DNA of 32,704 bases from Patescibacteria group bacterium (GTDB taxonomy: Bacteria > Patescibacteriota > Patescibacteriia > Magasanikbacterales > UBA922), in the NCBI GenBank assembly GCA_038065155.1, contig JBBTRO010000161.1:1-32704 (forward strand). The letters run 5' to 3'. Shown piece after piece: positions 9,695-21,185 of this stretch. Within the stretch, counting starts at the first letter, position 1; the number at the start of each line of letters is the position of its first letter. A program made the translations under genes and the position numbers. Below the pieces are notes generated by a model. It ran no database searches and was not told where the DNA came from. It saw only the letters and a program-made list of their open reading frames with translations.

Positions 9695-10153
9695 TCATTC
9701 GTTGTGGATCACGAAGCCGGCGGCGTCGATGGTCGCGACGGCCAGCTCGACGTCCTGGACCGTGACTTCGAAAGATTTCGACCCCTCCCTTGTGATGAAC
9801 TCGATGTTGTGGAACCTGATCCACTTGTTATTGCGTTTGTCTTTCATCACCTCTGCCTCTTGGACATCACGTGGCGTGATCTTGCCCTCGAGGAACAGGC
9901 GGATGGCGATGTTCGGGTTCACCACGATGTGGTGGATCTTGTTTCCGTTGCCGGCGAATACGTCCAAGTCGATGACACACACGATTCCAGGACTCGCCGG
10001 AGCCGGCTCGGCCTGAACGAACATGCCGCCGAGCGATACCACCGACATGATCCAAGAATTCCCGCCGTCACTCACAAAGCCCTTCTGGCCAAAGACGGTA
10101 ATTGCCTTGCCATCGAGCTCCAGAACGACTTTATCGATGTCGCTTGTAGCCAT
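9695..10153 (-). CDS. Orphan protein A (152 aa), GC-rich cassette
   Basis: The ATG at 10153 is preceded by AAGGAGAG (4-nt spacer). The minus frame has strong G/C third-position bias. Promoter-like and terminator-like signals flank it. No family recognised. Confidence 0.6.
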   Translation of the reverse strand: MATSDIDKVVLELDGKAITVFGQKGFVSDGGNSWIMSVVSLGGMFVQAEPAPASPGIVCVIDLDVFAGNGNKIHHIVVNPNIAIRLFLEGKITPRDVQEAEVMKDKRNNKWIRFHNIEFITREGSKSFEVTVQDVELAVATIDAAGFVIHNE

Positions 10154-11298: not shown

Positions 11299-11336
11299 AA
11301 AAATAGAAAAGTGGGCAACCGGGCTTGGCTGTCCAC
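11299..11336 (-). terminator. Intrinsic terminator downstream of cassette B gene
   Basis: On the minus strand, GTGGACAGCC-AAGCCC-GGTTGCCCAC (11311-11336) is followed by TTTTCTATTTTT (11299-11310). Confidence 0.55.
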
Positions 11337-11363
11337 TCTTCAGGATTGTTACCAAACTGTGTC

Positions 11364-11888
11364 TCAGCGATACTTGGCCCAGAGCTCCTTGATGTTTCCC
11401 CACGACACACTCACTTCCCGGTTCATCTTGCCTTTGACTTGATTCAGCTTCACGCCACTGGTCGTCACCCCTGCCCAGCGCATATAGGGTACGACCATGC
11501 CGCCTCTCATCCGCAGGTGCATGCGCTCACCGTCCATTACCCGTGTCAGATCCACGATGCTTGCATCCTCAATCACATTGATGATCTGTTTTGGCTCCAA
11601 ATCATCACTCTTTTTCACGAGTACCCGGCAACGTTCACAGACCGTCCGACGACAGTTGAAGGCCGTACCGGCAAGCGGGTAATACACGTACAGGATTACC
11701 CGCAGATGATGCTGAGTATCGGCACATTCGCAGATAGAGTTCCTTGCGAAGAACCCGCACGACTCGGCATCAATATCGGTCTCGAACATTTCCGTGCCCT
11801 CTGGGCGGCCGTAGCACTTGCTCGGCATGTAGCCGAGAACCAATTCCGATTCGTCATCATACACTTCCCCGGCAACAAACACGCCCAT
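11364..11888 (-). CDS. Orphan Cys/His-rich protein B (174 aa), GC-rich cassette
   Basis: The ATG at 11888 is preceded by AGGAGG (8-nt spacer). The frame has G/C third-position bias. Cys/His pattern: C53xC55-x4-H60H61-x16-N78-x5-C84xxC87. No family assigned. Confidence 0.6.
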   Translation of the reverse strand: MGVFVAGEVYDDESELVLGYMPSKCYGRPEGTEMFETDIDAESCGFFARNSICECADTQHHLRVILYVYYPLAGTAFNCRRTVCERCRVLVKKSDDLEPKQIINVIEDASIVDLTRVMDGERMHLRMRGGMVVPYMRWAGVTTSGVKLNQVKGKMNREVSVSWGNIKELWAKYR

Positions 11889-11913
11889 GGTGTTGTCCTC
11901 CTTTCTATTTCCC

Positions 11914-11942
11914 ACTATATGGTAGACAAGGAAAACGGTCAA
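11914..11942 (-). promoter_or_regulatory. Sigma70-like promoter for cassette B (TTGACC-17 nt-TATAGT)
   Basis: The -35 is the reverse complement of 11937-11942 and the -10 is the reverse complement of 11914-11919, with an exact 17-nt spacer. It lies ~25 nt upstream of the RBS. Confidence 0.4.
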
Positions 11943-11951
11943 TGCTACAAT
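11923..11951 (+). promoter_or_regulatory. Candidate folD promoter (TAGACA-17 nt-TACAAT) interleaved with the cassette B promoter
   Basis: The -35 is at 11923-11928 and the -10 at 11946-11951. It lies 18 nt upstream of the folD ATG. Confidence 0.3.
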
Positions 11952-11969
11952 AATCGTGCATTGAACCCT

Positions 11970-12818
11970 ATGGGCCAACTCATCGATGGAAAAGCGATTG
12001 CCCAGAAGATAGAACAAGAAACCGCCGCTCGGGTGGCTGCCTTGAAGCAAACAGGCGCGACACCGAAACTGGCGGTTATTTTAGTTGGCGAGGACAAGCC
12101 GTCGCAAACCTATGTACGGAAAAAGGGCGAAGCGGCAAAAAAAGCCGGAATGAATTTTGCTCTGCACGAGATCAAAGAATCCACTTCCACGCTTGAACTT
12201 ATTGAAAAAATTGAAGAGATCCAATCTGATTCGGAATTGTCCGGGCTGATTGTGCAACTTCCACTGCCGCCGCAGATTGATACGAATGCAGTCCTCAATA
12301 CTATTCGACCCGAGATTGATATTGATTGTTTAACAGAAGTGAACTTGGGAAAACTGATCATGAAAAGTAACCTGATCGAGCCGCCAACACCGGGCGCAGT
12401 CATGAGTATTCTCGAACATCTTCAGGTAGATCTTGTCGGGAAAAATGTTACCATTATCGGAGCCGGGCCACTGGTCGGCAAACCCCTCGCCGTCATGATG
12501 ATAAACGCGCGCGCGTCGGTGACTGTTTGCAACAGTAAAACTCGTGATACCAAGGAAAAATGCTTGGCCGCTGATGTTATTGTAACGGGTGTTGGGAAAA
12601 AAGATGTTCTGCGTGGGGATATGGTGCGAAAAGGAGCAATTGTCATTGACACCGGCGTTGATTTTGTAGAAGGCAAAATGTACGGCGATGTGAATGTTGA
12701 TGAAGTTGTTCAAAATGCTGGCTGGGTAACACCGACGCCTGGAGGAGTAGGACCGATAACCGTGGCACGACTTCTATTGAATACTATCACTTGCGCCGAG
12801 AACAAACTTAAGAACTAA
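11970..12818 (+). CDS. folD: Bifunctional methylene-THF dehydrogenase/methenyl-THF cyclohydrolase
   Basis: Starts MGQLIDGKAIAQKI... and contains LAVILVGEDKPSQTYVRKK, PPTPGAVM, GAGPLVGKP and PTPGGVGPITVA. The ATG at 11970 gives a typical ~282-aa FolD. The listed 497-aa ORF is an upstream artefact through the GC-rich cassette. Confidence 0.92.
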   Translation: MGQLIDGKAIAQKIEQETAARVAALKQTGATPKLAVILVGEDKPSQTYVRKKGEAAKKAGMNFALHEIKESTSTLELIEKIEEIQSDSELSGLIVQLPLPPQIDTNAVLNTIRPEIDIDCLTEVNLGKLIMKSNLIEPPTPGAVMSILEHLQVDLVGKNVTIIGAGPLVGKPLAVMMINARASVTVCNSKTRDTKEKCLAADVIVTGVGKKDVLRGDMVRKGAIVIDTGVDFVEGKMYGDVNVDEVVQNAGWVTPTPGGVGPITVARLLLNTITCAENKLKN

Positions 12819-14107: not shown

Positions 14108-16441
14108 ATGCCATCCGCTTTAGAGACAATCGATTTTTCTCACCTTACCTGGAGCGAAGCAGAGGAGATTTTGAAAAAGAATAATCTCGCTCTCACGGTG
14201 GAGGAAGCGTTAAAAATTCAAAATGAAATTCTCCATCGCCCGCCAACCCTCACGGAGTGTATTTTGTGGTCGATCCAGGGATCAGAACACAGTTCCTATA
14301 AAAGCAGTAGAAAGCACTTAAAGCAGTTCCTAACCACTAGCCAAGACGTCATTTTGGGTCCAGGCGAAGATGCTGGCATTGTGGCCGTGGCAAAAGATAA
14401 TGCGGGCCACCGCTACGGCATTGTGATGAGTCACGAATCGCACAATCACCCATCGCAAGTTGTCCCTTATGAGGGGGCGGCGACTGGAATTGGCGGCAAT
14501 GTGCGCGATGTCTCGTGTATGGGCGCCAAGGTGATCGCCAATGCCGATCCCCTGCGATTTGGCGACATTAAAAGTAATAAAACAAAATGGATTCACGAAG
14601 GCGTCGTCGCTGGCATTGCTGGATACGGCAACCCAATTGGTGTACCAGTTATTGCCGGGGACACATATTACGATGAATCTTACAATGAAAATTGTTTAGT
14701 CAATGTCGTCTCTCTCGGCGTCGTACTTGAAAATGAAGTGATTCATTCACGTGCGCCCAAAAATGCCATCGGGTATGATTTGGTTTTAGTTGGCAAACCG
14801 ACCGATAACAGCGGTTTTGGCGGCGCTAGTTTTGCTTCGCTCGAACTTGACGAAAGTAAACAAGAACAAAACAAAGGTGCAGTCCAGGAGCCTAATGCAT
14901 TCTTGAAACGCCATCTTTTAAAGGCCCACTACACTCTTTTTGAAATTCTCAAAGAAAAAAATCTCATTGATCGTGTCGGATTCAAGGATTTAGGCGCTGG
15001 CGGCATTGCCTGCGCATCAGTAGAGTTAGCTGACGCCGGTGGTTATGGCGCAGAGGTGAACGTGGATTTGATACCAACGAGTATAAAGGGTCTTCACCCA
15101 GCGGTAATTCTGTGCTCCGAGACACAAGAGCGGTATATGTGGGTCGTGCCAAAAGAACTTTCGGCTCTAATTCTCAATCATTACAACCAAACTTTCCGAC
15201 TTCCTGATATTGCCGAAGGCGCATGCGCCGCAGTGATTGGTGAAATTCGACAAGACAGTCAATATATTGTGAAAAGCCGCGGGCAGGAAATTATTCATGC
15301 CAAAGCCAGCGATGTTACTCAGGGTCTTGTGTACGATCGGCCATATCGGAAGCCGGAACGTTCATTCCAAGAACCAACGTTGTCCCCTCCTTCTGAAGGA
15401 GGGGCAAGGGGTGATCAATTCAATGAAACATTTCTTAAAATCCTTTCCCACGAAAATGTTGCCTCCCGCGAACCGATCTACGAAAATTACGACAAACAAG
15501 TGCAAGGGATTACAGTAATTGAACCAGGTGAAGCTGATGCTGGCGTGCTGCGGCCGTTTCACGATGCCAAATATCCAATTGAGATACAGTCGGTTGGAAT
15601 TGCGTTGTCAGTTGACCACAATCCGCGCTATTGCCAGATTGATCCGTATTGGGGCGCGGTGAATGCCGTGGTAGAATCAATTCGCAATGTCGCGGCCGTG
15701 GGAGCCGCCCCAGTTGCTCTCACCGATTGCCTCAACTTTAGTAACCCAGAAAAGCCAGAACAAATGTGGGAATTTGTGGAAGGCACACGGGGTGTTGCCG
15801 AAGCCGGCAAAGCTCTTAATGTACCAATTATTTCTGGCAATGTATCGCTCTACAATGAGACCAAAGGCAAGGCAATCGCGCCTTCACCAGTGATTGCCTG
15901 TTTGGGCACGATGTCTGATGCCAAGCGAGCAATTACTATGCATTTCAAGCAGGTTGGTTCTTTGTTATTTCTTATTGGTGAGAGAAAAGACGAATGCGGC
16001 GGCAGTGTGTATTATCAATTATTCAACCAACTAGGAGCAAACGTGCCAAAGCCTGATTTTAAAGAAGTCGAAAAACAGATGACTGCGCTAACGAATGCAA
16101 TCCAACAGGGCTTAATTCTATCCGCTCACGATATTTCCGATGGTGGCATTGCGACTACACTAGCAGAAATGAGTTTTGGGAATGAAATTGGTGCTGATGG
16201 GGATATTCCTGGTGATCTGCAGAATGATAAAAAGTTATTTGGTGAAACTGGCGGATTTGTGATTGAGGTAGCGTTAGATATGGCTATGAAGATCAAAAAT
16301 TTATTTACCGAAAATCAAGTCCCACTAATTGAGATTGGGAAAACCATTGCAGACAAAAAATTGAAAATGAATAATGTGATTGACGCTGACTTGCTTGAGG
16401 CAAAAAAGAAATGGAAAAATGGACTGAGAGAGAAATTGTAG
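14108..16441 (+). CDS. purL: FGAM synthase II (small PurL) with a short in-frame repeat insertion
   Basis: 777 aa containing ESHNHPS, GGNVRD, DLGAGG and SAHDISDGG. Confidence 0.95.
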   Translation: MPSALETIDFSHLTWSEAEEILKKNNLALTVEEALKIQNEILHRPPTLTECILWSIQGSEHSSYKSSRKHLKQFLTTSQDVILGPGEDAGIVAVAKDNAGHRYGIVMSHESHNHPSQVVPYEGAATGIGGNVRDVSCMGAKVIANADPLRFGDIKSNKTKWIHEGVVAGIAGYGNPIGVPVIAGDTYYDESYNENCLVNVVSLGVVLENEVIHSRAPKNAIGYDLVLVGKPTDNSGFGGASFASLELDESKQEQNKGAVQEPNAFLKRHLLKAHYTLFEILKEKNLIDRVGFKDLGAGGIACASVELADAGGYGAEVNVDLIPTSIKGLHPAVILCSETQERYMWVVPKELSALILNHYNQTFRLPDIAEGACAAVIGEIRQDSQYIVKSRGQEIIHAKASDVTQGLVYDRPYRKPERSFQEPTLSPPSEGGARGDQFNETFLKILSHENVASREPIYENYDKQVQGITVIEPGEADAGVLRPFHDAKYPIEIQSVGIALSVDHNPRYCQIDPYWGAVNAVVESIRNVAAVGAAPVALTDCLNFSNPEKPEQMWEFVEGTRGVAEAGKALNVPIISGNVSLYNETKGKAIAPSPVIACLGTMSDAKRAITMHFKQVGSLLFLIGERKDECGGSVYYQLFNQLGANVPKPDFKEVEKQMTALTNAIQQGLILSAHDISDGGIATTLAEMSFGNEIGADGDIPGDLQNDKKLFGETGGFVIEVALDMAMKIKNLFTENQVPLIEIGKTIADKKLKMNNVIDADLLEAKKKWKNGLREKL
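15384..15414 (+). repeat. Palindromic repeat family copy d (truncated), in frame inside purL
   Basis: The CCCCTCCTTCTGAAGGAGGGG hairpin plus CAAGGGGTGA encodes SPPSEGGARGD. Confidence 0.65.
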
Positions 16442-16505
16442 TTTACAAGAAAAACAAAAGACCGCTCTTTTACAAGCAGTCCTCTGCAGAAAAATTAGAT
16501 TGTTT

Positions 16506-16564
16506 TGTCCACAGCATCCAGCTTCATTTTTCGGAGGAAAAGTGGAGCTAGATCGCCGTGGACA
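16506..16564. other. 59-nt extended hairpin between purL and cassette C
   Basis: TGTCCACAGC/GCCGTGGACA, ATCCAGCTTCA/TGGAGCTAGAT and TTTT/AAAA stack coaxially. The apical loop is CGGAGG on the plus strand (CCUCCG on the minus strand). Confidence 0.55.
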
Positions 16565-16593
16565 CCTCCTTTCTTGTAAGCACGACGATAAAA

Positions 16594-17037
16594 TTAGGGA
16601 TGCCCCTTTCGAATATAGCTGATGAGGAGTACGAGGCCCGTCGCGTTCGCGAGAAAAGTCGCAAACGCTTGAACCAACTCCATGACAGCGTCGGTAATCT
16701 GCGTATCGTCAAAACGAGAAGGCTTCTGGTCTATTTCCAGCTCACCGTTCTGGAGCTGAATAAAAAGCTCCTGTACACCGCTTCCCCGAATACAGGCGCT
16801 GATTTTGCGGCAGGAGTGCTCCGGTTGGCGGATTTGGATGGAAACTGTTACACCTCGTCTTTCCGCGAGATCGCAGAGTGATTTCATGCAGTGCATGAAC
16901 AGAGCATCTACCATCCTCTGATCACGAGCCGCAGTACCGTCCAAAGACAGGTTGTAGGCAGAATCGACCGTGAAGCAAAGATCCTGGCCACTAGATTCCA
17001 TCCGAACGGTCGCCGAGTGCATGACCTTCTTGCTCAT
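16594..17037 (-). CDS. Orphan protein C2 (147 aa), second gene of GC-rich two-gene cassette
   Basis: The ATG at 17037 is preceded by GAGGAGGTGGTGAA. It overlaps the C1 stop by 4 nt (ATGA at 17034-17037). No family recognised. Confidence 0.55.
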   Translation of the reverse strand: MSKKVMHSATVRMESSGQDLCFTVDSAYNLSLDGTAARDQRMVDALFMHCMKSLCDLAERRGVTVSIQIRQPEHSCRKISACIRGSGVQELFIQLQNGELEIDQKPSRFDDTQITDAVMELVQAFATFLANATGLVLLISYIRKGHP

Positions 17038-17420
17038 TTCACCACCTCCTCGAGAACGGCACCGAGCCACTCGAGCGCAGTTTTGATCAATTTCATCCCC
17101 TCCTCTGTGATACGCGCCGGATGGGTGGAAGTGTCCTCCCCACTGAAATGAACCGACAGGATGGTACGGTCCGCAGGCGAGAAAAACATCATGTTACCCA
17201 CATTTATGACTCCAGACATCGGCAACTGACAGGATTCGGGAATCTGTCCGCCACAGATGGCGAGAAGACGCCTGATCACATCGAGTAGAACCAGAATCTT
17301 TATATCCTGGTCAACATGGTAGTCAAGAGAAAATCCACGGTCGGCTCGGACACTGAGCTGGAAGAGCTCCCTATCCCCGTGTTTATGAGTTGTCCACAAA
17401 GAAATGAGTACCCTTTTCAC
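17034..17420 (-). CDS. Orphan protein C1 (~128 aa), first gene of GC-rich two-gene cassette
   Basis: The GTG at 17420 is preceded by GGAGG (5-nt spacer). An alternative GTG at 17447 would give 137 aa. No family recognised. Confidence 0.5.
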   Translation of the reverse strand: MKRVLISLWTTHKHGDRELFQLSVRADRGFSLDYHVDQDIKILVLLDVIRRLLAICGGQIPESCQLPMSGVINVGNMMFFSPADRTILSVHFSGEDTSTHPARITEEGMKLIKTALEWLGAVLEEVVK

Positions 17421-17490
17421 TGTCACCTCCGCAACAGAGTAAATCACTAAAAAAAATATTCGTCAATTACTTCACTTATTGTCAAGTACT

Positions 17491-18525
17491 ATGCCCATAA
17501 ACTACAAAACCGCCGGCGTGGACATTGATAACGCCAACGAAACCAAAAAACAAATGGCTGATGATTTGAAAAGTGATGACAAGCGCGTACTCAACAAACT
17601 CGGCGCCTTTGCTTCGCTTTACGATATTAAATTTCCGGAATACAAACACCCGCTCCTGGTCCTAAAAACCGAAGAGCCCGGCAGTAAACAATTGCTGGCG
17701 ATTCAATATGACAGAATCGAAAGCATTTGTTTTGACATGATTAATCATTTGGTGAATGATTGTATTGTGATGGGGGCAAAACCACTGACGGTTCAGGATG
17801 CAATTATTTGCGGCAAGCTTAAAAAGGAGGTCGTTTTGCGCATGGTGAAAGCAATGTCGAGAGCCTGCCAGGCGCAGGGCTGCAGCCTGACCGGCGGCGA
17901 GACATCCGAACAGCCTGGTGTCCTTGTGGAAGATACCTATATTTTGACATCCAGCATCGTTGGCATCGTTGAAAAAGAGTCTGTCATCGACGGCAGTCAA
18001 ATTATGGTGGGTGACAAAATTTTGGCTTTGGAATCCAGCGGGCTCCATACCAATGGCTATACGCTCATTAGAAAACTCATTCAAGAAAATCCCAGCCTAG
18101 TAAATGAAAAAATCGGCGACACAAAATTCATTGAAGCCGTTCTGGAACCTCACCGCTGTTACTATAATGCCATTAAAGATCTTTTTCCCACAAAAAAAAT
18201 CACTGGCCTGGCTCATATCACTGGCGGCGGCATCAAAGAAAATTTGAACCGTATTTTGCCAAAAAACATGAACGCAAAGGTGGATTTAAGTCTTTATCAA
18301 ATTTTACCGATCTTCAAATTTTTGAAAAGCTATGCCAAACTTGAGGATGCTGAATTGCTCCGAACATTCAACATGAGCGTCGGTCTAACCATGGTAGTAA
18401 AAAAAGAAGCAGTTGGGGAAATAATAATGTTTATCCAGAAAAAAGGCGTCAATTGCTATGAGATTGGAGGTATTGTAGATGGCAATGGCGTTGTAGAAAC
18501 TACTGGCCAATTACGTTATGACTAA
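17491..18525 (+). CDS. purM: AIR synthetase
   Basis: Contains YKTAGVDI, the NHLVNDCIVMGAKPL region and LTGGETSEQPGV. The ATG at 17491 is preferred over the TTG at 17479. Confidence 0.92.
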   Translation: MPINYKTAGVDIDNANETKKQMADDLKSDDKRVLNKLGAFASLYDIKFPEYKHPLLVLKTEEPGSKQLLAIQYDRIESICFDMINHLVNDCIVMGAKPLTVQDAIICGKLKKEVVLRMVKAMSRACQAQGCSLTGGETSEQPGVLVEDTYILTSSIVGIVEKESVIDGSQIMVGDKILALESSGLHTNGYTLIRKLIQENPSLVNEKIGDTKFIEAVLEPHRCYYNAIKDLFPTKKITGLAHITGGGIKENLNRILPKNMNAKVDLSLYQILPIFKFLKSYAKLEDAELLRTFNMSVGLTMVVKKEAVGEIIMFIQKKGVNCYEIGGIVDGNGVVETTGQLRYD

Positions 18526-19879
18526 AATCGCCATCATCCAATTTCCCGGCAGTAACTGTGAATCCGAATCTATCCGAGCGATAGAGCAAGCTGGCATGGA
18601 AGCCGAGGAATTTTTATGGAATCGGAATCCCGAAGACCTCAAACAGTTTGATGGTTATTTTATTGTCGGCGGATTTTCTTACGAAGATCGTTCACGAGCT
18701 GGGATTATTGCCGCGCTTGATCCGCTGATGCCGTTTATCCGAGCCGAAGCGGAAAAAGGTAAGCCGGTCCTGGGGATTTGCAATGGCGCGCAAATTTTGG
18801 TCGAAACTGGCATGGTGCCTGGGCTTGCAGACAATGCTGTGGGTATGGCTCTGGCAGTAAATAAGCGTATCCAAAACGGTAAAGTGCTTGGCACTGGCTT
18901 CTACAACGCCTGGGTACATATTCAGCTAGCAGTTCCGAGCGAATCGTCAGCCTTTAGCCTGCATATGAAGCCAGGAGAATATATCAAAGTGCCGGTGGCC
19001 CATGGCGAGGGTAGATTTATCATTCCTGGTGCATTGCTTGAAGAAATGAAAGCCAAAAATTTAACCTTGTTTAGATACTGCGACGCAAACGGAAGTATTT
19101 CTGAAGAATTTCCAATCAATCCCAACGGTGCAGTCTATAATCTGGCCGCTGTTACCAATGTTCAAGGCAATGTTACGGCCATGATGCCCCATCCCGAGCG
19201 CACCGATGCCGGCCAGCCGATTTTTACATCGATGCGGGAATACATCCAAAATGAAAAAAAAATAAATATAAATAATCCCTCTACTCGTAGGAGAGGGCAG
19301 GGTGAGGTCTCAACGAGTGTCGATCCGACTCCATTTGTATTTACATCATCCATTCTTGAACTCACTCCCTACTCCCCCACCCACCACTCCTTTCAACTCA
19401 CCACCACCCTCAACATCACCGACAACGAAGCTATCACTGTCCGAAATACCCTAAAACAATTAGGAATTGATTGTGAAATTAAGCGTATGACCCACTGGGA
19501 AATCACAGCCCAGCCAAATACAAATCTCCAACAACTTGAAGAACGCATTATCGCTTCTCAAGAGTTATTTAACCCACGGAAGGAAAATATAATCAATTTT
19601 CCTCCCCTCGTAGGGGAGGGTCAGGGTAGGGTCTCAACGAGGGATGGCAGAGAAAATACTCTCCTTATTCGCTATAAAGACGACTTCATCGGCCAACAAA
19701 AAGAACAAGCCCTTCACGATCGCTTTGGCCTTAGTGACATCACTGATCTGAGGCACGGCACCCTCTGGAAAATCTCTGCCCCCCGTGATACCATTGAGGC
19801 CACAGTACAGCGGATTCTCGATACCCATATTTTGTTTAATCCGTACTCACAATCGTGTTTTACCTATGGATTATACTGA
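18518..19879 (+). CDS. purQ: FGAM synthase glutaminase PurQ fused to two tandem PurS-like domains
   Basis: Residues 1-~250 are PurQ (GICNGAQIL nucleophile, MMPHPER). PurS-like unit 1 spans ~19330-19595 (NITDNEAITVRNTLKQLGID...ELFNPRKENI). PurS-like unit 2 spans ~19645-19876 (QQKEQALHDRFGLSDITDLRHGTLWKI...ILFNPYSQ). Repeat copies lie at both junctions. Confidence 0.85.
   Translation: MTKIAIIQFPGSNCESESIRAIEQAGMEAEEFLWNRNPEDLKQFDGYFIVGGFSYEDRSRAGIIAALDPLMPFIRAEAEKGKPVLGICNGAQILVETGMVPGLADNAVGMALAVNKRIQNGKVLGTGFYNAWVHIQLAVPSESSAFSLHMKPGEYIKVPVAHGEGRFIIPGALLEEMKAKNLTLFRYCDANGSISEEFPINPNGAVYNLAAVTNVQGNVTAMMPHPERTDAGQPIFTSMREYIQNEKKININNPSTRRRGQGEVSTSVDPTPFVFTSSILELTPYSPTHHSFQLTTTLNITDNEAITVRNTLKQLGIDCEIKRMTHWEITAQPNTNLQQLEERIIASQELFNPRKENIINFPPLVGEGQGRVSTRDGRENTLLIRYKDDFIGQQKEQALHDRFGLSDITDLRHGTLWKISAPRDTIEATVQRILDTHILFNPYSQSCFTYGLY
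19277..19317 (+). repeat. Palindromic repeat family copy e, in frame at the PurQ/PurS-1 junction
   Basis: CCCTCTACTCGTAGGAGAGGGCAGGGTGAGGTCTCAACGAG encodes PSTRRRGQGEVSTS. Confidence 0.85.
19601..19641 (+). repeat. Palindromic repeat family copy f, in frame at the PurS-1/PurS-2 junction
   Basis: CCTCCCCTCGTAGGGGAGGGTCAGGGTAGGGTCTCAACGAG encodes PPLVGEGQGRVSTR. Confidence 0.85.
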
Positions 19880-20867: not shown

Positions 20868-21185
20868 GTGAACAGGAAAAAATGTGGCTCGGAAAAAAAA
20901 ATTGACGACGTTATTGAAGCGTATTTGGCTGCCTACATTGCAGAGGCTGGTGAACCGCTTGAAGTGTATCTTATAGGCAGTAGCCTCAAGAAAACGACCT
21001 ACGACGGTGGGGACATTGATTTGGTCTTCATAACAAATGGCCCCTTGACAACATCGCGGCAAAAATTTACTTCACCTTCAGACTTCGCTCGTTTTCTGGG
21101 AATTATTCATGAGCAGGAAGTACAGTCAACCGATGAAGAATATAAAAAATTTTTATTAGCCAGAGGTTATAAAAAAATTAAATAA
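20868..21185 (+). CDS. Small Pol-beta-type nucleotidyltransferase-domain protein (start uncertain; see A9 tract)
   Basis: LIGSSLKK...GGDIDLVF fits the GS...DxD minimal NTase signature. The GTG start at 20868 is as listed. The upstream ATG at 20864 is out of frame by one base across an A9 run. Confidence 0.5.
   Translation: MNRKKCGSEKKIDDVIEAYLAAYIAEAGEPLEVYLIGSSLKKTTYDGGDIDLVFITNGPLTTSRQKFTSPSDFARFLGIIHEQEVQSTDEEYKKFLLARGYKKIK

Follow-up and report, generated by a model that had tools for sequence, protein, structure and literature searches.

A lineage-restricted pair of ORFans, probably of recent foreign origin, lies antisense between purL and purM in a groundwater Patescibacteria bacterium

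The contig JBBTRO010000161.1 of a groundwater Patescibacteria metagenome-assembled genome (MAG; assembly GCA_038065155.1) carries on its plus strand a purine biosynthesis cluster in which Pfam identified folD, purA, purL, purM, purQ, purC, purE, purB, purF, purD, purN, and purH. Within the whole stretch analyzed (positions 1 to 32,704, called the window here), purL (14108–16441, plus strand) and purM (17491–18525, plus strand), delimited by their Pfam domains and by alignment with relatives, are separated by an insertion of ∼1,049 bp (16442–17490), which reaches from the purL stop codon (16439–16441) to the true purM start, ATG 17491. The insertion encodes, on the minus strand, two small proteins without detectable relatives (ORFans), termed C1 and C2. 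It is restricted to one lineage, it bears a foreign signature, and its coding signature lies on the minus strand. This ∼1.05 kb of DNA in the purL–purM spacer is probably a bicistronic accessory operon that was acquired horizontally and recently. The pair had first been pointed out in a reading of the sequence by eye (the original prediction), which took C1 and C2 for translationally coupled paralogs.

The same arrangement was found in five independent, near-identical assemblies from different samples. Their identity was at least 99.96%, except for that of L001 (97.6%), whose lower value is due to the many indels of an assembly with 1x coverage. When genomes and metagenomes were scanned with purM, only three loci outside the species shared the pur synteny (L004, L005, and L017). 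In L005 and L017 (purM 70% identical), the gap between purL and purM is only about 10–19 bp and the cassette is missing; in L004 (purM 78% identical), the spacer holds an unrelated, co-oriented open reading frame (ORF) with an NYN domain, again without the cassette. As purL and purM adjoin in the former two and are separated by a different gene in the latter, region 16442–17490 was gained in the lineage of this species; it is absent from the closest relatives despite conserved synteny. Beyond this small clade, the nearest relatives of purM were mostly from Candidatus Peribacteria MAGs. Peribacteria are a class of the candidate phyla radiation (CPR) reported to retain nucleotide synthesis, and they are among the few CPR lineages so described (PMC4736985).

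The foreign signature of the insertion concerns both its composition and its translation signals, which deviate from those of the host. GC content of the ORF-containing part was 0.518, compared with a window mean of 0.453 (standard deviation 0.026), which is 2.5 standard deviations above it, and the sign of the GC skew flips across the insert. Adenine occupied a fraction of 0.12–0.13 of third codon positions in C1 and C2 versus 0.25 in host genes. The regions upstream of host genes are AT-rich, and use of Shine-Dalgarno (SD) sequences in the window is concentrated in GC-rich orphans: an SD-like motif was present upstream (region −18 to −4) of all four GC-rich orphans versus 2 of the 22 host genes (hypergeometric p ∼0.001). 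The heptamer GGAGGTG occurs five times on the minus strand of the window, three times within the 1 kb of the insert.

Both genes (NCBI locus names AAB408_05420 and AAB408_05415, each annotated as "hypothetical protein") are where the original prediction had placed them (ORFs 17034–17447 and 16594–17037), antisense between the plus-strand genes purL and purM, and the overlap and the ribosome-binding site described for the second ORF were also correct. The frame of C1 is open to GTG 17447, from which it would encode 137 amino acids. An in-frame GTG at 17420, chosen as start by the gene callers in three assemblies, is the more likely one on sequence grounds, because a second GGAGGTG (17424–17430, minus strand) sits 3 nt before it, separated by ACA. 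C1 would thus be a protein of 128 amino acids (17034–17420, minus strand), predicted to be soluble and of alpha/beta type. C2 (16594–17037, minus strand) comprises 147 amino acids when counted from its ATG; its frame is open to 17070. The ATG overlaps the TGA stop codon of C1 in the sequence ATGA (17034–17037), and GAGGAGGTGGTGAAATG is found upstream of it. The SD site of C2, again GGAGGTG (17043–17049, minus strand), lies within the 3′ end of C1 and is separated from the ATG by GTGAA. ATGA overlap, internal SD, and lack of any family match bear out the description of the pair as a compact, translationally coupled unit of orphan proteins. Toward its C-terminus, C2 has an uncharged hydrophobic helix (approximately residues 121–142), with a Kyte-Doolittle maximum (19-residue window) of 1.89 at residues 121–139; the AlphaFold2 (AF2) model of C2, which has a predicted local distance difference test (pLDDT) score of only 46, places a helix at residues 114–143.

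Among 2,000 dinucleotide-preserving shuffles of the 1,049-bp insert, 0.1% contained a pair of non-overlapping ORFs on the same strand that were both at least 128 codons long, and 9% contained a lone ORF of at least 137 codons. In their own frames, both C1 (p = 1.3e-4) and C2 (p = 2.8e-4) showed 3-base periodicity, GC was low at codon position 2, and at codon position 1, G exceeded C, as it does in host genes; when read on the plus strand, C exceeded G. Two plus-strand ORFs, 16558–16881 (107 amino acids) and 16891–17151 (86 amino acids), are codon-aligned shadows of the minus-strand ORFs, which is to be expected because C1 and C2 are nearly devoid of TTA, CTA, and TCA codons. Scored against host codon usage, the minus-strand frames reached 0.12 and 0.11 bits per codon versus 0.07 and 0.04 for the shadow frames. 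Neither plus-strand ORF matched Pfam or PHROGs, and neither was present in any protein collection. Irrespective of which of the five assemblies was considered, C1 and C2 were called as genes and the plus-strand ORFs were not. As candidate genes, the minus-strand ORFs, to which the original prediction had also given preference, are superior: they have the greater length, span almost the whole insert, each begin with a start codon 5–7 nt from a perfect SD, and show the host-like excess of G at the first codon position.

The stop codons of purL and C2 are separated by a structured element of 140 nt (16442–16582), which was folded in both orientations. A closing stem of 10–12 bp, in which TTACAAGAAA (16443–16452) pairs with TTTCTTGTAA (16570–16579), encloses two hairpins; the inverted repeats I5 and I9 lie in this element, and only here were 10-nt perfect terminal inverted repeats found. 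Its minimum free energy was −55.7 kcal/mol for the plus strand (z = −5.9) and −61.9 kcal/mol for the minus strand (z = −7.0), and none of 200 shuffles folded as well. No match to the element was found in Rfam. On the minus strand, downstream of C2, it contains a terminator-like hairpin of 14 pairs followed by a T-run (16454–16487; tail TTTTCTTGTA); on the plus strand, no terminator-like site was found in 16200–17700. A third SD-like sequence, of extended length, is also found in the element on the minus strand (AGAAAGGAGGTG, 16563–16574); it has neither a start codon at usable distance nor an ORF behind it. Its plus-strand complement, CACCTCCTTTCT, resembles the 3′ end of 16S ribosomal RNA. 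This third site may be the remnant of a truncated third gene, or it may function in RNA stability. Two other identities of the element were considered. It does not fit an integron attC site, as its ends lack the RYYYAAC/GTTRRRY core sites and no integrase domain was present among the neighboring genes. A reading as a miniature inverted-repeat transposable element or insertion-sequence-type element was likewise not adopted: no further copy was seen in the 32.7 kb of the window or in the retrieved loci, nor was a flanking duplication.

No relatives of C1 or C2 were found in any of the collections searched. Comparison with Pfam, NCBIfam, and PADLOC yielded nothing at E ≤ 1 beyond noise, PHROGs contained no family for either protein, and a sequence search of the PDB returned no match. 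In a word-index search of a set of 5.8 billion clusters, each protein matched only its own near-identical cluster (90% identity; that of C1 has six members), and an exhaustive phmmer search of 1.84 billion representatives with C2 recovered C2 itself only. Scans of viral contigs with both proteins and with two patterns for the hairpin element were empty, blastn and tblastn gave no DNA or protein match in phages and plasmids, and C1 and C2 were not similar to the other orphans of the window. As judged from these comparisons, both proteins are strict ORFans, unrelated to anything in the public data searched. No DNA or protein match that would point to a donor was obtained in any collection searched. 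A second copy of the insert was found neither in the window nor in the retrieved loci, and the neighboring genes and the window yielded no integrase or transposase, no tRNA, and no repeat that would bound it. One inverted repeat flanking the insertion (I1; 25 nt, 76%) was considered as a boundary and treated as chance, because it lies partly within the conserved coding sequence of purL and purM.

Taken as an acquired operon, the insertion can be explained as follows. Some 1.05 kb of acquired DNA would have been inserted, at the level of the species, into the purL–purM spacer of a Peribacteria-like Patescibacteria bacterium, bringing with it a small operon of two genes that runs counter to the pur genes. 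On the minus strand, this operon would consist of a short leader with an SD, C1, C2, and the 140-nt double-hairpin element. Transcription may start from a weak candidate promoter, read by eye (TTGACG, 17 nt, TTTACT; 17438–17466, minus strand), which is situated in the 70 bp that would be shared with purM. Translation of C2 would be coupled to that of C1 through the ATGA overlap and the SD of its own, and the double-hairpin element would probably terminate the minus-strand transcript. The hydrophobic C-terminal helix predicted for C2 (∼22 uncharged residues) could anchor this protein in the membrane. The genes from purM onward are probably still expressed, either by read-through from purL across the insert or from a new promoter within the 45–70 bp before purM. 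Such read-through, which would run antisense to the cassette, is possible given that no terminator-like site was found on the plus strand between the two genes.

Several observations weigh against a functional accessory operon. Neither protein contains a toxin, antitoxin, or defense domain detectable with Pfam, NCBIfam, or PADLOC, and as no homolog was found outside the species (with C1 searched by the word-index method only and C2 also by exhaustive phmmer), there is no conserved pairing. The structure models are of low confidence (pLDDT 43–46), and Foldseek searches with them gave no match below E = 0.01, with TM < 0.5. The host codon-usage score of C1 and C2 (0.11–0.12) is far below that of host genes (0.30–0.33) and slightly above that of the shadow frames. 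The scan for a consensus promoter upstream of C1 found no site that met the criteria, and the arrival of the DNA is not accounted for by any mobility gene, by terminal repeats, or by a duplication of the target. Finally, the assemblies of the species differ by 4–5 bases in 10–20 kb, mostly by G>T or C>A singletons, which fits sequencing error or oxidative damage rather than real polymorphism. With differences so few and error-like, the assemblies give no evidence of selection on C1 and C2.

These observations make the main rival explanation worth weighing, although on balance it is unlikely: the insertion could be a non-functional relic, that is, DNA of a donor (host, neighbor, or phage) integrated by illegitimate recombination, in which the ORFs are intact merely because insertion was recent and are neither expressed nor selected. 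Confinement to one species with essentially no divergence, the lack of an obtainable selection signal, the poor codon fit to the host, and the lack of a consensus promoter are all compatible with a relic, and the third perfect SD-like site without an ORF suggests that a larger operon was truncated. On the other hand, nothing is broken in either ORF, in either SD, in the overlap that couples the genes, or in the 3′ hairpin; the boundaries of the fragment closely frame a whole unit of two genes, and the block is unchanged in five assemblies from different samples.

If the acquired operon is functional, what the pair does is a matter of more tentative proposals. It could be an accessory module of the conflict or addiction type, with C2 as a membrane-targeted effector kept at a fixed ratio to C1 by coupling; this guess, unlikely as it is on its own, was preferred because of the C2 tail, the way the genes are arranged, and the fact that the operon harbors other small genes of a selfish type. 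The resemblance to type II toxin-antitoxin (TA) systems and two-gene defense pairs lies in two small genes of the same orientation that overlap by 4 bp (ATGA), the second with its SD inside the first, in their accessory nature, patchy presence, and foreign composition, and in the hydrophobic helix of one partner (C2), through which it could act on the membrane. In contrast to such pairs, C1 and C2 have no detected toxin, antitoxin, DNA-binding, or defense domain and no homologs, hence no conserved pairing, and in contrast to type II TA systems, both are larger than a typical antitoxin. Of the idea put forward in the original prediction, that the layout is that of a TA, defense, or heterodimeric module, the gene layout held; beyond the layout, there was no positive evidence, with neither a domain nor a conserved pairing. 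A more far-reaching version is improbable. According to it, the pair would be a functional, family-less two-component conflict module (toxin-antidote or anti-phage) with C2 as tail-anchored effector, and it would belong to a set of several ORFan cassettes, rich in GC and equipped with SDs, that were seeded into the housekeeping operons of an SD-poor CPR genome, perhaps by uptake of DNA from host or phage.

The proposal that C1 and C2 are paralogs, sharing a duplicated beta-beta-alpha-beta-beta-beta-alpha domain and forming a stoichiometric heterodimer, is very improbable. It had been made from similarity seen by eye, and translational coupling would suit a heterodimer; both low-confidence models show strands, a helix, strands, and a long C-terminal helix, and the two proteins have in common a short I-T-x-x-x-M-x-L motif that opens the last helix. 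When C1 was compared with C2, however, BLASTP gave no alignment at E ≤ 100, and the best Smith-Waterman score was 23, compared with a mean of 26.5 for shuffled sequences (z = −0.74). The two pairs of segments singled out in the original prediction scored z = 2.0–2.4, values that follow from a post hoc choice and are uncorrected for picking. The profile alignment suggested at the time, carried out with hhalign, covered 19 columns with a probability of 0.3% and E = 0.19. The single-sequence AF2 models had pLDDT scores of 43 (C1) and 46 (C2), which is why their topology is unreliable; their order of secondary structure elements is only loosely alike, and a loosely similar order of strands and helices in models of such low confidence would be no evidence of paralogy. 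Nothing usable came from searching these models with Foldseek: its top matches for C1, RNase-H-like or UvrC-like, were not credible, as no acidic residue occupies the position of the first catalytic Asp. Co-occurring pairs of homologs, which had also been suggested as a check, were found nowhere outside this species (by word index for C1 and C2, exhaustively for C2 only). Mutual similarity and pairing elsewhere, whose joint absence the original prediction had named as refuting its claim, were thus both missing; judged by sequence, C1 and C2 are not duplicates of each other, and the claim of paralogy is not supported.

It is equally doubtful that the pair represents a single gene of ∼275 codons split by a frameshift, be it a pseudogene or a programmed shift. 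The frame of C2 does extend 33 nt beyond its ATG, as far as 17070, and so overlaps the end of C1, but exactly at this junction are a perfect SD and an ATG in the classic ATGA overlap; all assemblies with clean coverage of the junction have it at the same position, no mismatch is present there in L002 and L003, and neither half has a homolog that could reveal a fused form. Least credible is that the two plus-strand ORFs are the real genes, transcribed along with the pur operon: they share the orientation of purL and purM, and their codon scores are just slightly under those of the minus frames, but they are the shorter ORFs, have poor start contexts and no well-spaced SD (the lone GGAGG before the 107-residue ORF is ∼20 nt from its GTG, which is too far), show an atypical C > G at codon position 1, match no Pfam or PHROG family, have never been called as proteins in any assembly, and are explained as shadows by the codon usage of C1 and C2.

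When compared with known systems, the C1–C2 insertion adds one more case to the well-known lineage-specific ORFan islets. Like other horizontally acquired ORFan islets (phage "morons" and accessory cassettes), it is self-contained, in that it brings the signals for its translation and ends in a 3′ hairpin, deviates from the host in composition, is absent in sister lineages, and belongs to no detectable family. Unlike these, it has no prophage, integrase, transposase, tRNA, or repeat boundary nearby, and it is situated inside a housekeeping operon rather than on an island. An integron cassette likewise has no recognizable consensus promoter and an imperfect palindromic 3′ element, here of ∼140 nt; it differs in that attC forms a single bulged hairpin, rather than a closing stem with two internal hairpins, and no integrase and no cassette array are present in the 32.7 kb. 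Two twists are mildly notable, namely, the site inside an essential operon, and the contrast with the host in SD use and GC content.

That the antisense position within the pur operon is unusual, as had been remarked originally, stands in a softened form, since other small genes have been inserted into the same operon. One of them is the NYN-domain ORF of L004, the closest relative with this synteny (2609–2971 of that locus, plus strand; 120 amino acids; Pfam E = 1.6e-6); its ATG overlaps the purL stop in an ATGA, and it represents an independent occupation of the same purL–purM slot in a sister lineage. The other is an MNT-like ORF, o105 (20868–21185, plus strand; 105 amino acids), which is located between purC and purE and is absent there in L005; its nucleotidyltransferase matches (NTP_transf_2/Polbeta) are weak (E ∼1e-3) and fall under the Pfam cut-offs. 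These two resemble C1 and C2 as small selfish-type, lineage-specific genes of 100–150 amino acids in the same or similar slots of the operon. They differ in being co-oriented with it, in their host-like AT-rich composition, and in having family assignments, albeit weak ones, whereas C1 and C2 run antisense, are rich in GC, carry SDs, and have no family.

Two further orphans of the window are o152 (9695–10153, minus strand; 152 amino acids), which in the word-index search matched only itself, and o174 (11364–11888, minus strand; 174 amino acids). They share the signature of the cassette, with a GC content of 0.54–0.56, a fraction of A at third codon positions of 0.11–0.14, location on the minus strand, and strong SD sites (GAAGGAG and AAAGGAGG), and are unrelated to C1, to C2, or to each other. 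The mechanically compiled list of ORFs contains a "folD" of 497 amino acids (11325–12818, plus strand); the real folD comprises ∼299 amino acids from ATG 11919, and the upstream part of the longer ORF overlaps o174 on the opposite strand. In the purQ ORF (18518–19879, plus strand; 453 amino acids), GATase_5 covers only residues 2–229, and the C-terminal extension of ∼220 amino acids has no Pfam match. This extension is likely conserved in the clade, because the ORFs of L005 and L004 are of similar length (449 and 476 amino acids), and it may be a fused PurS-like region. As regards variation, the window differs from L002 and L003 at positions 9953, 12408, 15514, 16850, 17135, 22020, and 24301, and three separate Asp-to-Tyr singletons were seen among the members of the C1 and C2 clusters.

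As the evidence stands, C1 and C2 are an ordinary pair of "hypothetical proteins," for which a paralogous heterodimer is not supported. If the pair is functional, it would represent a protein family to which none of billions of sequences is related, and which only very recently entered a CPR lineage that is described as making its own nucleotides (Peribacteria; PMC4736985), through an insertion that interrupts an essential operon. Should the improbable idea of several ORFan cassettes seeded into housekeeping operons prove true, Peribacteria would be gaining genes in a way that has so far not been reported for them. Together with the two further GC-rich, SD-bearing ORFans of the window, the C1–C2 pair provides a small but concrete case for the uptake and tolerance of foreign genes in reduced CPR genomes.

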